Below, piece by piece: positions 20,205 to 22,388 of a DNA stretch of 64,000 bases. A program made the position numbers and the translations under genes. The notes beneath the pieces were generated by a model. The model did not search any database. It saw only the letters and a program-made list of their open reading frames with translations, and was not told the DNA's origin. The stretch is taken from positions 275,923 through 339,922 of the forward strand of contig JACOYB010000004.1 of the NCBI GenBank assembly GCA_016182085.1. Reading direction: 5' to 3'. This DNA comes from Candidatus Magasanikiibacteriota bacterium (GTDB lineage: Bacteria; Patescibacteriota; Patescibacteriia; Magasanikbacterales; GWA2-37-8). Each line of letters opens with the position of its first letter. Position 1 is the first letter of the stretch.

Positions 20205-22388
20205 ATGGGTAAAGACGATAAAGAGTTGGAAAAAGTAAATCTGGATACGGAAAGCAGTAATAATCCTGAAGCCGATCAAAACGCCGCACGGACGGAAAGA
20301 GTCTTGCAAGTATTAAAAGAAGACAGCAACATTTTGGGCGATTATATACAAAATGACGCGGAAGCAAAGAGAGAGTTGGGTGTGTATCAGCAAGAAGTCA
20401 GGGGAATTTTAGAAGGCAGTAAGGAAAAGATTGATGCCGAAATTGTTGATCGCGCGCAAAGAGATATTTATTTTGCGGATGAAGTTGAAAAAATGGCAAA
20501 GGGTGAAGAGTTTAACGCGCCGGCTTTGGCCGGTGTATTAGAACGAAGAATGTGGGGCAGTTTTTTTAATAATTTAAAGAAAGGGGATACAGTAATTAGT
20601 TTTTTAGTGCCGGGCGCCGATTTTCTTTCCATCAAGAATTTAAATGATAAAATTTTTGGCCCTCAAATTACTAATAGAATAATTGAACAGAAGCGCATAG
20701 TGCTTGAGCAAAAGATTAAAGAAGTTGATCCGAACGCGTCTTTAGCGCGATCCGATTACAACATAGAGGTCATACAAACCTCTAAAGATCCTGCGGTATA
20801 TAATAAACAATTGGAAAAAGTAATGACGGAAGTAGATAGAGAAATAACTAAATTTATCGAAGTGATAATTGACAAGTTGATAGAAAAAGAAAGAGAGTCT
20901 TTAGAACCATTTATTATAAAAAGGGCCGAGCATCAATTTATAGATAAAAACGCAAAGAAATCCAACGATGAGTTAATTAAAAAATATGAAGACAATATAA
21001 ATAAATGGGATCAGTTTAAACAGGAGTTATTAGGCACCCTGAACGGAAAGCCGACTAAAGGCGGTTTTAGAATGAACTATGGTTTGGCGGTTGTGGAAGG
21101 AAACGAAGCCAAAGATCAGCTTTTGGCCCTGAATCATTCTTTGCAAACTAGCCGCGTAGCTAGAGAAAAGCGAGGTGAAATTTACGGGGCAGAGTATAGT
21201 GAGAACAAGAATTTGCAAGAAGTGGAAAATATAAAAAATTTAAGGGATGAAATTATAAAAAGTGGTAATAAAATTACCGACTTAGACGGGAATGAGTTTA
21301 CTATTTTTCTACCTGTGCCAGTTGAGGGTGCGACCAACAGATATACTCTCGATAGAGATTTATTAAGAGATGTTCGCAAAGGTAAATTCAAAATAGTGGA
21401 TAAGAGTTTGTTGGAGAAGGTAGTGTTATATATAAAAAGATTAAATATTTTGGATGCTGTTAAGCCGTTTATTTATGCAGAAACGAAAACTGTCGGTGAA
21501 AACATAGAACGATTCCATGAGTTGGCAGAGAAAATTAAAAATCAAGAATTATCGGATGAAGACAGGCAAAAAGCCGCCGATATTTTGCGTTCCGATGAAA
21601 AAGCACCGGAATATACTTCTAAAAGTGAATTTCATAAAAGAGCTGCGGCCATGGAAGATGCTGTTTATGTCAGTATGGATGTTTTGGATTTGGGTGTAGA
21701 TTTGCTTTTGGAATATGAAAGCGCTTTGCAAGATGTTGAAAACGCACCATCTGATAAAAAGTTAGAAAAATTTAATGAAGTTTCTTTGGTTGCCGGAGAT
21801 GAGACCACAAAAAAATTGAGAGAATTCCGAAAAGAAGTTGTGCGAGTGTATAAAGAAGAATTTGGTTTAGGGGATGGCCTTGTAGTAGGAGAAGTTGGCG
21901 GAGACGAATTGACTTTGGCTATAGACATAAAAGATTTAATGAAAGGAGAGGTTGATGAAAAGCAAAAAGAAGAAAAATTAAACAAGCTGTTGTTTGCTTT
22001 GAAAAAAGCTACCAATACGCGCGTGATTAAAACTGTAGTTTCTGAGACGGAAAAACATGTCTCCAATGAAAGCGATCAGCATGGCCGTGTAGAGGCTCAT
22101 TTAAAAGCTATAAAACGAGCGGAAGCCGGCGCCAGTATTGCCAAAGACTTGGAAGAAGCGGCCCGTAAATTAACGCGCCTGTTGAATAGGCTGGGTAAAG
22201 AGGCGGTGACAGAAAAGCTGGATGGGTTAAGAGAAGTATTTATGATAGAAGGAAATGAAGTAAAGTCTAATTTTGTGATAATGGACAACGACGGCGGGTT
22301 TAAAATTGCCAATGGGGATGATGGTGAATTTAATTACAATTCCATTAAAAAGGATTTGGACGCTATATTGGGCAAAAAAGAGTACTAG
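20205..22388 (+). CDS. large charged protein with a C-terminal divergent GGDEF-like (palm-domain nucleotide-cyclase-like) region, GGDEL variant
   Basis: 727 aa. The C-terminal third contains …VYVSMDVLDLGVDLL… (compare the lDiDhFK block), …GDETTKKLREFRKEVVRV… (compare GDevLrefa) and …LVVGEVGGDELTLAID… (compare RYGGEEFvvll) in the canonical order. The N-terminal 450 aa show no recognised domain. Confidence 0.5.
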   Translation: MGKDDKELEKVNLDTESSNNPEADQNAARTERVLQVLKEDSNILGDYIQNDAEAKRELGVYQQEVRGILEGSKEKIDAEIVDRAQRDIYFADEVEKMAKGEEFNAPALAGVLERRMWGSFFNNLKKGDTVISFLVPGADFLSIKNLNDKIFGPQITNRIIEQKRIVLEQKIKEVDPNASLARSDYNIEVIQTSKDPAVYNKQLEKVMTEVDREITKFIEVIIDKLIEKERESLEPFIIKRAEHQFIDKNAKKSNDELIKKYEDNINKWDQFKQELLGTLNGKPTKGGFRMNYGLAVVEGNEAKDQLLALNHSLQTSRVAREKRGEIYGAEYSENKNLQEVENIKNLRDEIIKSGNKITDLDGNEFTIFLPVPVEGATNRYTLDRDLLRDVRKGKFKIVDKSLLEKVVLYIKRLNILDAVKPFIYAETKTVGENIERFHELAEKIKNQELSDEDRQKAADILRSDEKAPEYTSKSEFHKRAAAMEDAVYVSMDVLDLGVDLLLEYESALQDVENAPSDKKLEKFNEVSLVAGDETTKKLREFRKEVVRVYKEEFGLGDGLVVGEVGGDELTLAIDIKDLMKGEVDEKQKEEKLNKLLFALKKATNTRVIKTVVSETEKHVSNESDQHGRVEAHLKAIKRAEAGASIAKDLEEAARKLTRLLNRLGKEAVTEKLDGLREVFMIEGNEVKSNFVIMDNDGGFKIANGDDGEFNYNSIKKDLDAILGKKEY

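Follow-up and report, generated by a model that had tools for sequence, protein, structure and literature searches.

GGDEF domains, CRISPR polymerases and Thg1 form one clade of palm enzymes with the same active-site layout, in which an Asp ends strand 1, the hairpin between strands 2 and 3 bears an acidic dyad preceded by a small residue, and, as a trait specific to these groups, nothing is inserted between strand 1 and helix 1 (PMC2904730, Anantharaman et al.). Cas10 binds the metals and one nucleoside triphosphate (NTP) through the β1 Asp of Palm2, the Asp of GGDD and a Lys farther downstream, binds the triphosphate of the other NTP through Asp, Ser and Lys residues of Palm1, and elongates an oligonucleotide (PMC11734703). 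Class III cyclases carry a single acidic hairpin residue and make cyclic nucleoside monophosphates (cNMPs) from one NTP (PMC2904730). Toxins associated with extracellular contractile injection systems (eCIS) have as their hallmark an N-terminal DUF4157, a long linker and a C-terminal toxin (Geller et al. 2021, PMC8213781). The subject of this report is a 727-aa open reading frame (ORF) at 20205..22388 (+) of a 64,000-nucleotide stretch of a Candidatus Magasanikiibacteriota genome (GCA_016182085.1, contig JACOYB010000004.1, positions 275,923 to 339,922; "the window" below), which is identical to the NCBI entry 'hypothetical protein HYT15_01695' of Candidatus Magasanikbacteria, a metagenome-assembled genome. 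Predicted structure and residue conservation lead us to favour, at slightly better than even confidence, an undescribed family of single-chain two-palm nucleotidyltransferases that is related to GGDEF and Cas10 and would act as an active NTP-condensing conflict effector.

Predicted palm units and conserved residues

The full-length AlphaFold2 (AF2) model, computed from a 35-sequence alignment, has a mean predicted local distance difference test (pLDDT) score of 82.4 and a predicted TM-score (pTM) of 0.78. AF2, Foldseek and hhalign converge on a predicted catalytic palm domain, Palm2, at aa ~473-620 (21621..22064, +). Its strand β1 (aa 485-493), with D492 as penultimate residue, runs straight into helix 496-513 with no insert; an extra helix (aa 516-529) separates this pair from helix 532-552, which is capped by G531-D532. 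Strands β2 (560-564) and β3 (568-574) follow, with G565-G566-D567 in the turn and E568 opening β3, and the unit is closed by helix 585-603 and β4 (610-618). The modelled Palm2 shows all three of the clade traits described above (PMC2904730).

The initial annotation of this DNA had picked out three motif segments in a canonical order inside 21600-22100, and all three were located. Block 1, SMDVLDLGVDLL (aa 490-501; 21672..21707, +), carries the putative metal ligand D492 at the end of β1. Block 2, GDETTKKLREFRKEVVRV (aa 531-548; 21795..21848, +), begins GDETTKKLREF from aa 531, and its helix cap, G531-D532, aligns to the GGDEF 'GDxxL'. Block 3, VGEVGGDELTLAID (aa 561-574; 21885..21926, +), contains GGDEL at aa 565-569 (nt 21897-21911), so that GGDE 565-568 presents a small residue and then an acidic dyad on the β2-β3 hairpin. 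That annotation also anticipated palm topology with these residues so placed and a block spacing longer than in PleD; the model returns both, the extra length lying in helix 516-529 between β1 and the GD helix. The flagged C-terminal region is predicted to be a palm of the RNA recognition motif (RRM) type, and not the all-helical coiled coil that had been named as the contrary outcome.

Confident Foldseek matches in the PDB are almost exclusively palm cyclases. The full-length model aligns to 8s9t_C, the Cas10 of a type III-D complex (E=1.5e-3, 671 columns), to 3w2w_A, Cmr2 (E=2.2e-3, 699 columns), to PleD, WspR and a T. maritima GGDEF protein (probability up to 1.00, target-normalised TM-score (TMt) 0.55-0.58) and to mCpol OptS (TMt 0.51-0.54); class III cyclases are listed too. 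In the viral structure database BFVD, the two top matches are phage GGDEF proteins. Because no E-value falls below 1e-3, the similarity, itself drawn from a predicted model, is fold-level evidence, short of proof of family membership.

A second, N-terminal palm-like unit was overlooked by the initial annotation, and it makes the whole protein more Cas10-like than GGDEF-like. Palm1 (aa ~105-321; 20517..21167, +; AF2, Foldseek, hhalign) is a ferredoxin/palm-like β-α-β-β-α-β unit lacking an acidic hairpin: no conserved acidic dyad was found on its hairpin, which reads SDYN in the target and xxYK in most family members. Its AF2 elements are β 129-134, helices 143-174, a hairpin at 179-192, a long helical hairpin of 80 residues (aa 196-276; 20790..21032, +) inserted between β3 and β4, and β 291-296; modelled alone, the unit reaches a pLDDT of 84.5. 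The Palm1 motif PGADFLSIKNLNDKIFG (aa 136-152; 20610..20660, +) aligns to the GGDEF 'DxDxFKxINDxxGH' and may be the site for the triphosphate and base of a second NTP. At the β1-helix junction it bears a near-invariant K144-x-x-N147-D148, the equivalent of the GGDEF 'FKxxND', and hhalign pairs the Palm1 string "LERRxW...GDxV..f.Pg.d..IKxLNDxxfGxxxTD" with the α0-β1-α1 segment of GGDEF, "LTGLxNRR...iDiDxFKxINDxxGHxxGD".

Searched alone with Foldseek, Palm1 also finds GGDEF domains (probability 0.98-0.99, TMt 0.55-0.58), among them 4urq_U (probability 0.99, TMt 0.57), and further matches are DgcR, WspR, DosC and the Rv1900c cyclase. The alignment to 4urq_U covers 177 columns in the full-length search and 210 with Palm1 alone; Palm2 is therefore the apparent source of the full-length match, and each unit matches GGDEF independently. 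No internal duplication of Palm1 and Palm2 is detectable by hhalign. The two units retain complementary halves of the GGDEF signature, FKxxND in Palm1 and GD...GGDE in Palm2, as would be expected if they made up a pseudo-heterodimer sharing one composite site. The protein is read as a single-chain pseudo-dimer resembling Cas10, outside any CRISPR context. A Wzz/PCP-like identity was also considered for Palm1 (top Foldseek match; NCBIfam WzzB, E=1.9); this shape analogy of an α/β base with a long helical hairpin was dropped because no transmembrane (TM) segments are seen in the sequence and motif conservation points to nucleotide binding.

Conventional sequence searches do not place the protein in a described family. 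The PF00990 search suggested in the initial annotation gave no match even at E<=10, and the same holds for the GGDEF, Cas10 and cyclase families of Pfam and NCBIfam. PDB sequence searches with the target and with two family profiles returned nothing significant; the divergent-family profile has three matches in all, each a T. maritima GGDEF chain that aligns at GGDE(F) with E ~0.7-0.9. When the 69 most divergent family members were searched singly against Pfam, lone sub-threshold matches appeared to GGDEF (0.012), Cas10-Cmr2_palm2 (0.016), Csm1_B (0.0086) and GCH_III (0.028), which is noise level among 104 families. PADLOC finds no system and no Cas10 match for the target, and its marginal match to a Cas8b large subunit (aa 597-703, E=6.6e-4) is a hint only. 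Judged by the criteria of those families, the target therefore belongs neither to PF00990 nor to any Cas10 model.

Profile-profile comparison reaches further. A GGDEF profile was assembled from seven E. coli K-12 diguanylate cyclases (DosC, DgcJ, DgcP, DgcF, DgcZ, DgcC, DgcN) and eight PleD-like proteins, replacing an earlier PleD-only profile (Neff 2.3) that was too weak (P ~0.007). Palm2 (aa 470-665) aligns to it with a probability of 69% (P=4.4e-5, score 34.9, 39 columns), and the paired strings, "AGDxxT..LRxF...GGDE-ltlA" and "GDxxL...R-GGDEF-vvi", are exactly blocks 2 and 3. Palm1 (aa 100-330) reaches 13% (P=0.0022, score 24.9, 60 columns), and the middle domain, used as a control, gives nothing meaningful (0.2%, P=0.26, score 11.9, 19 columns). 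Reversed queries score 12.8 and 14.9 and the best of 60 column shuffles 20.0 and 15.8 for Palm2 and Palm1, respectively, so that 0/60 shuffles attain the observed score in either case. A low-confidence extension of the Palm2 alignment lines up K647 with the Lys of the GGDEF "ALYxAK". Taken together, the hhalign results are distant-homology support below the usual >90% probability, obtained with a small home-made profile of 15 sequences.

These results bear on the proposal that the motif order is a fingerprint shared by diguanylate cyclases, Cas10 and SMODS-type cyclases. Likeness to the GGDEF/Cas10 palm is supported by AF2, Foldseek and hhalign, and the SMODS part falls away: SMODS/cGAS-type cyclases have a Pol-beta nucleotidyltransferase fold, not the palm fold of the target.

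A profile search of 1.84 billion representative proteins assigns 242 clusters, defined at 50% identity, to the family at E<=1e-3. Most members are seemingly stand-alone proteins of the candidate phyla radiation (CPR) type, and in a scan of the genome collection seeded with one of the family alignments (A1) nearly all loci belong to Magasanikbacteria or other Patescibacteria. D492, D495, G497, A530, G531, T535 and G565-G566-D567-E568 are invariant in the 35 close homologs (28-62% identity). In a broad alignment of 181 retrieved family sequences, giant proteins included and ~170 of them aligned, conservation extends across Palm2 (D492 169/170, G497 167/170, D532 154/171, G565 165/168, G566 166/168, D567 165/168, E568 164/168) and Palm1 (K144 162/163, N147 167/168, D148 148/153, G152 155/168). 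The 69 most divergent members, with 18-36% identity to the query, still have D492, GGDE, N147, R391, D417, R606 and K647 without exception. The three motif segments are real and not chance matches, since D492, G497, D532 and GGDE are kept in 90-99% of ~170 homologs. Of the two possibilities first raised, an active synthase of a new subfamily and a degenerate receptor, near-invariant catalytic residues favour the active synthase; an enzyme of the PleD type making cyclic di-GMP (c-di-GMP) is not what the data suggest.

The remaining regions complete a Cas10-like order. Between the palms lies a middle domain (aa ~328-470; 21186..21614, +) in the position of Cas10 D2, lacking Cys or Zn, with conserved R388, R391, K392, D417 and K420. 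Palm2 is followed by a helical region in the Cas10 D4 position (aa 625-671; 22077..22217, +; H632, K647 and E650 conserved) and, in the AF2 model, by a small C-terminal β domain (aa 679-722; 22239..22370, +). The N-terminal region (aa 1-100; 20205..20504, +) is helical, variable and modelled with low confidence. The protein as a whole contains no Cys, is rich in E, K, L and D, and shows no signal peptide or TM segment evident from sequence. The strongest strand-composition anomaly of the window, at 20001-22000 (GC skew +0.325, AT skew +0.197, GC 0.358), coincides with the gene and fits a purine-rich, E/K/D-rich coding sequence.

Giant family members and their partner gene

Outside the CPR, the family appears as a module of ~550-600 residues at the extreme C-terminus of giant proteins of up to 4,138 aa. 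It spans residues 3491-4129 of 4138 in P0138, 3524-4057 of 4110 in P0132, 3239-3763 of 3807 in P0137, 2904-3493 of 3516 in P0164, 1415-2003 of 2037 in P0135 and 1160-1710 of 1756 in P0142. An N-terminal eCIS_core domain (PF13699, formerly DUF4157) is present in P0138, P0131, P0135, P0142 and P0140, the last a minimal version of 949 aa, and weakly in P0164. The gene for P0131 (WP_108074819.1), from Vitiosangium (Myxococcota), ends an eCIS locus and adjoins Pvc16_N, an AAA ATPase and two further eCIS_core proteins; in P0131 the module takes up about aa 1370-2032.

Four loci have an ORF of 192-226 aa that adjoins the giant gene's 3' end or overlaps it (L029 17206-17886; L030 21938-22531; L032 20544-21200; L033 6111-6689). 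These ORFs are homologous to one another (blastp E 2e-28 to 9e-6), and Pfam assigns no domain to any of them. A partner was predicted on this basis for P0140, P0132 and P0137, which have the module alone in common with the first set, and it was found directly downstream in 3/3 cases with E=8e-18 to 5e-31 (L039 3175-3567; L040 13977-14585; L041 15305-15928). This unannotated partner family (~190-226 aa, one member cut by a contig end; motifs 'RYFxG', 'GEAWREE' and 'PRPYCP') is best explained as a putative cognate immunity protein, because it tracks the module in 7/8 loci, P0142 being the sole exception. By analogy with toxins so arranged, the C-terminal 'toxin' position and the dedicated partner suggest an effector role; across the family at large, use in conflict or as a toxin fits better than housekeeping c-di-GMP signalling.

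Several of these loci carry additional genes. L040 and L041 share a downstream ORF of ~130 aa (L040 14585-14980, L041 15925-16311) with similar N-termini ('ALAH.F...L.ET..WPP.LQV.LH.LAF') and a pentapeptide-repeat protein (L040 15535-16863, L041 16804-18024), which suggests a larger conserved cassette. P0138 (L030 9529-21945) combines eCIS_core, an ADP-ribosyltransferase (ART) domain and the palm module and may be a two-warhead toxin; an ADP-ribosylglycohydrolase gene two genes downstream (L030 23551-25455) is possibly the immunity gene for its ART domain. Kinship of the giant-protein partner with the 107-aa ORF of the window, described below, or with a 93-aa ORF of Uhrbacteria was considered and rejected, the proteins being unrelated on comparison.

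The gene and its surroundings in Magasanikbacteria

In the window, the target gene ends a same-strand run of genes for an FkbM-type methyltransferase, a DUF6938 protein and a 107-aa helical ORF, with FtsE and FtsX upstream; its other neighbours are a tRNA-Asn, a DsrE gene and a helicase. Across the CPR loci, the conserved neighbours other than the 107-aa ORF reflect lineage synteny or are housekeeping genes, namely a phospholipase D (PLD)/cardiolipin-synthase-like gene, an HI0933 flavoprotein, TsaE and a major facilitator superfamily (MFS) protein, and in 28 related loci the same or other housekeeping neighbours surround the target homologs. The synteny is kept in closely related Magasanikbacteria and not in deeper relatives. 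The DUF6938 protein (443 aa, 18536-19867, +) is 79-98% identical across Magasanikbacteria loci and always paired with the FkbM-type methyltransferase as a conserved two-gene unit. A functional link of the target to FkbM or DUF6938 was considered and dropped, because the association is lineage synteny only, not conserved in deeper relatives.

The 107-aa ORF (19876..20199, +) is all-helical and ends 5 nt before the target start. Besides the window, 10 other distinct loci have a homolog of it directly upstream of the target, and two of these, L018 and L026, share no other synteny with the window. It is possibly a partner or inhibitor of the target.

Comparison with L007, a near-identical relative, sets this gene pair apart. 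The flanks are 92-97% identical in DNA and 93-100% in protein (FtsE 100%, FtsX 99%, DUF6938 98%, helicase 96%), whereas the target is 62% identical in protein and 68.7% in DNA and the 107-aa ORF 53%; the first ~400 nt of the target cannot be aligned even here. The target and the 107-aa ORF evolve far faster than their surroundings, yet the catalytic residues do not change. Such a combination, a constant active site within a scaffold that diversifies, would be typical of conflict proteins.

The difference from L007 forms a strain-variable island (~19876-23560 in the window, 7430-11495 in L007) in a background otherwise 92-97% identical. Within it the target and the small ORF are swapped for divergent alleles, and the window has an intron/HNH insertion and a DsrE-like gene (23132-23458) where L007 carries a 488-aa MFS transporter. 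The insertion interrupts the tRNA-Asn(GUU) just downstream of the target (22454-23065, +; 5' exon 22454-22487, intron 22488-23026, 3' exon 23027-23065) in its anticodon loop with a 539-nt group I intron (Rfam RF00028, 73.9 bits) that holds a 108-aa HNH homing-endonuclease-like ORF (22505-22831); the tRNA-Asn of L007 is intact and intron-less (L007 10130-10202). A perfect TTGACA-17-TATAAT promoter lies at 22408-22436, between the target stop and the tRNA-Asn. Farther downstream, a 718-aa ResIII/DEAD helicase (23592-25748, +; GC 0.48 against ~0.40 around it, within a higher-GC region at 24-28 kb) matches PbeA (E=1.6e-13) in PADLOC, as well as models resembling the R subunit of type I restriction enzymes; L007 has it too (96%), but in other loci it does not adjoin the target.

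Several related loci carry surprising organism names. L013 (DATION010000007.1), titled Candidatus Udaeobacter sp., has the Magasanikbacteria-type synteny FtsE-FtsX-FkbM-DUF6938-small ORF-target, and loci titled 'uncultured Gammaproteobacteria' (L007, L010, L011, L014, L015 and others) show the same synteny from FtsE to the target. Their flanking proteins are 79-100% identical, and the labels are probably placeholders or the result of mis-binning.

Proposed activity, alternatives and comparison with known systems

In the proposed mechanism, Palm1 and Palm2 would form one composite Mg2+-dependent pocket, as in Cas10 or the class III C1/C2 pseudo-heterodimer; the Cas10 pocket, which lies between its two palms (PMC11734703), serves as the template. 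Palm2 and K647 would bind a pair of Mg2+ ions together with the NTP that is attacked at its alpha-phosphate, and Palm1 would bind the NTP that supplies the attacking 3'-OH. A single catalytic loop would make one phosphodiester bond per step and hence a linear pppNpN first, which might then be elongated or cyclised as in Cas10 to yield a linear or cyclic oligonucleotide. In the delivered versions, the product or the depletion of NTPs would harm the target cell, and the ~200-aa partner would block the enzyme in the producer. The stand-alone CPR protein might act in conflict with a host, a competitor or a phage, with the 107-aa ORF as its candidate regulator or inhibitor. More tentatively, the family may constitute a class of delivered Cas10-like toxins or effectors that synthesise (cyclic) oligonucleotides or drain NTPs in the target cell, delivered by eCIS in myxobacteria and others together with an immunity protein and used as stand-alone proteins against hosts or competitors in the CPR, and so offer a Cas10-style two-palm link outside CRISPR.

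Several points weigh against the reading of the target as a two-palm conflict effector. One of its two main weaknesses is that all similarity statistics are modest: no significant sequence match exists in Pfam, NCBIfam or the PDB for the target or the family profiles, every Foldseek E-value is at least 1.5e-3, and the full-length TM-score to Cas10 is only ~0.2. The best structural matches of Palm1 are WzzB fragments (E=3.5e-3) followed by IS608 TnpA, another RRM-fold protein, and not cyclases, so that its assignment as a nucleotide-binding palm draws on its motif and on an hhalign signal of modest strength. The composite pocket is a proposal and not something observed in the model coordinates. 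The other main weakness is that the effector role of the CPR proteins is extrapolated from remote family members (E ~1e-38 to 1e-19 against the profile), because the CPR proteins have no eCIS_core, no homolog of the ~200-aa partner (none in the window or 28 CPR loci) and no secretion signal that can be recognised in the sequence, and most of their neighbours are housekeeping genes. The ~200-aa partner, finally, could be a chaperone or activator instead of an immunity protein.

The alternative that survives best, though unlikely, is a nucleic-acid-directed palm enzyme, either a template-independent or Thg1-like polymerase or a toxin that modifies RNA or DNA ends. RNA or DNA is the target of many toxins, and the conserved basic residues R388, R391 and K392 of the middle domain could bind nucleic acid. 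The clade shared with CRISPR polymerases and Thg1 (PMC2904730) and the extension of an oligonucleotide by Cas10 itself (PMC11734703) are consistent with such an activity. Family A polymerases do appear low in the Foldseek lists, at probabilities of 0.14-0.28 as opposed to 0.98-1.00 for cyclases; Thg1 is not in the top 50 PDB matches, and neither fingers nor thumb subdomains were recognised.

Somewhat less likely again is an anti-phage signal synthase of the CPR cell, comparable to mCpol/Panoptes, cyclic oligonucleotide-based anti-phage signalling systems (CBASS) or type III CRISPR, with the small upstream ORF or a neighbour as sensor or effector. The fold matches to OptS, the co-occurrence of a small fast-evolving ORF and the hypervariable, strain-specific locus, which has as neighbours the inserted group I intron and the helicase that matches PbeA and type I restriction enzyme-like models, would all suit such a system. 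Nearby genes encode no CARF, SAVED, TIR, nuclease or TM effector, PADLOC finds no system, the neighbourhood is not conserved across clades, and the helicase is unlinked to the target in other loci.

The GGDE(L) hairpin, the GD helix and K647, which align with GGDEF catalytic elements, together with the place of GGDEF domains among the best fold matches, might also suggest a conventional, sequence-divergent diguanylate cyclase that forms a homodimer via a coiled coil, perhaps the long helical hairpin, and signals by c-di-GMP in the CPR cell. This is improbable. The target lacks a PF00990 match, an RxxD I-site and any sensory or receiver domain; 'FKxxND' is found not in the catalytic unit but in another, palm-like one; and no c-di-GMP riboswitch occurs in the window. 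Homologs carry toxin-delivery domains and come with a partner gene of their own, and the target gene is hypervariable, unlike a housekeeping signalling gene. Most improbable is that the protein has no catalytic activity and serves as a structural element or receptor, in the manner of degenerate GGDEF receptors or the Cas8 large subunits, its palm-derived domains being part of a coiled-coil scaffold. This would accommodate the missing sequence match to active families, the non-enzymatic WzzB fragments matched by Palm1, the marginal Cas8b match and the high helical content, yet degenerate receptors characteristically lose their catalytic residues, whereas D492, D567, E568, K647, K144, N147 and D148 are kept in 97-99% of ~160-170 sequences at an overall identity below 20%.

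If the two-palm protein is active as proposed, it represents a sizeable unannotated branch of the GGDEF/CRISPR-polymerase/Thg1 palm clade, with 242 clusters and no Pfam model. To our knowledge, a fused layout of two non-equivalent palms is otherwise found in Cas10; its occurrence here bears on the origin of Cas10 and on the number of undetected nucleotide-signal or oligonucleotide synthases. The family would also add a palm-type nucleotide synthase to the activities of injected toxins, among which the nucleotidyl-cyclase toxins we know of (CyaA, EF, ExoY) use a different fold. Much of the CPR proteome has no known function, and the present reading would supply a concrete enzymatic hypothesis for a conserved yet hypervariable gene, maybe one engaged in symbiont-host or symbiont-phage conflict. 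A literature search of incomplete coverage found no prior description of the family, nor of a palm-type cyclase among eCIS or polymorphic toxins.

Cas10 is the closest described system in overall design. As predicted, the target would, like Cas10, place Palm1, an intervening domain, Palm2 and a C-terminal helical domain in this order in one chain; in both proteins a GG-acidic-acidic loop (GGDD in Cas10, GGDE in the target) is confined to Palm2, accompanied by the β1 Asp and by a Lys farther downstream, and Cas10 structures are the best full-length Foldseek matches of the target (8s9t_C and 3w2w_A, 650-700 columns). The structural match is nonetheless weak (full-length E 1.5e-3 to 3.3e-3, TM ~0.2). 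The target has no HD match and no Cys, hence no Zn-finger D2; an HD nuclease domain and a Zn-binding D2 are common but not universal in Cas10. It matches no Cas10 model, no cas genes or CRISPR array lie near it, and no CRISPR-like repeat array was found in the window. Its Palm1 differs in carrying the 80-residue helical hairpin and the GGDEF-type FKxxND.

GGDEF domains (PF00990; PleD, WspR, DgcZ, TM1788) share with the target the palm, the β1-end Asp, the GDxxL helix, the hairpin GG[DE]E and the downstream Lys, and their guanine-binding 'GD' Asp is present in Palm2 as D532 (154/171). In the target, however, the signature is split over the two units: no K-x-x-N-D was found after the catalytic β1 of Palm2, where VLDLGVDLL follows D492. 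Nor was an RxxD I-site found upstream of GGDE, where the sequence reads GLVVGEV; this inhibitory site, five residues upstream of GGDEF, is typical and not universal. Sensory partner domains are absent, a helix is added between β1 and the GD helix, and the active site, formed by a homodimer in GGDEF proteins, is predicted to be intramolecular.

The mCpol/Panoptes synthase OptS is likewise a Cas10-type palm outside CRISPR used in biological conflict, and it matches the target in fold (9pd0_C and 9mnr_B, probability 0.97-0.98, TMt 0.51-0.52); OptS is a single palm of ~120 aa, in contrast to the two fused, non-equivalent palms of the 727-aa target, near which no OptE-like membrane effector is encoded. 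Class III cyclases (mammalian adenylyl cyclase C1/C2, soluble adenylyl cyclase) offer tandem palms in which complementary residues make one functional site, and soluble adenylyl cyclase aligns to the target over ~610 columns (8cnh, 4clk) at a low Foldseek probability (0.23-0.41); the target differs in its acidic dyad, D567-E568, and has no PF00211 match. With eCIS-associated toxins, the distant family members share exactly the N-terminal eCIS_core, long linker and C-terminal module, whereas the target itself has no eCIS_core, eCIS neighbours or homolog of the downstream partner. Against this background, the fold and the chemistry are known, and what is new is that two non-equivalent palms are fused outside CRISPR, that the GGDEF signature is divided between them and that the module occurs in a setting of toxin and partner.

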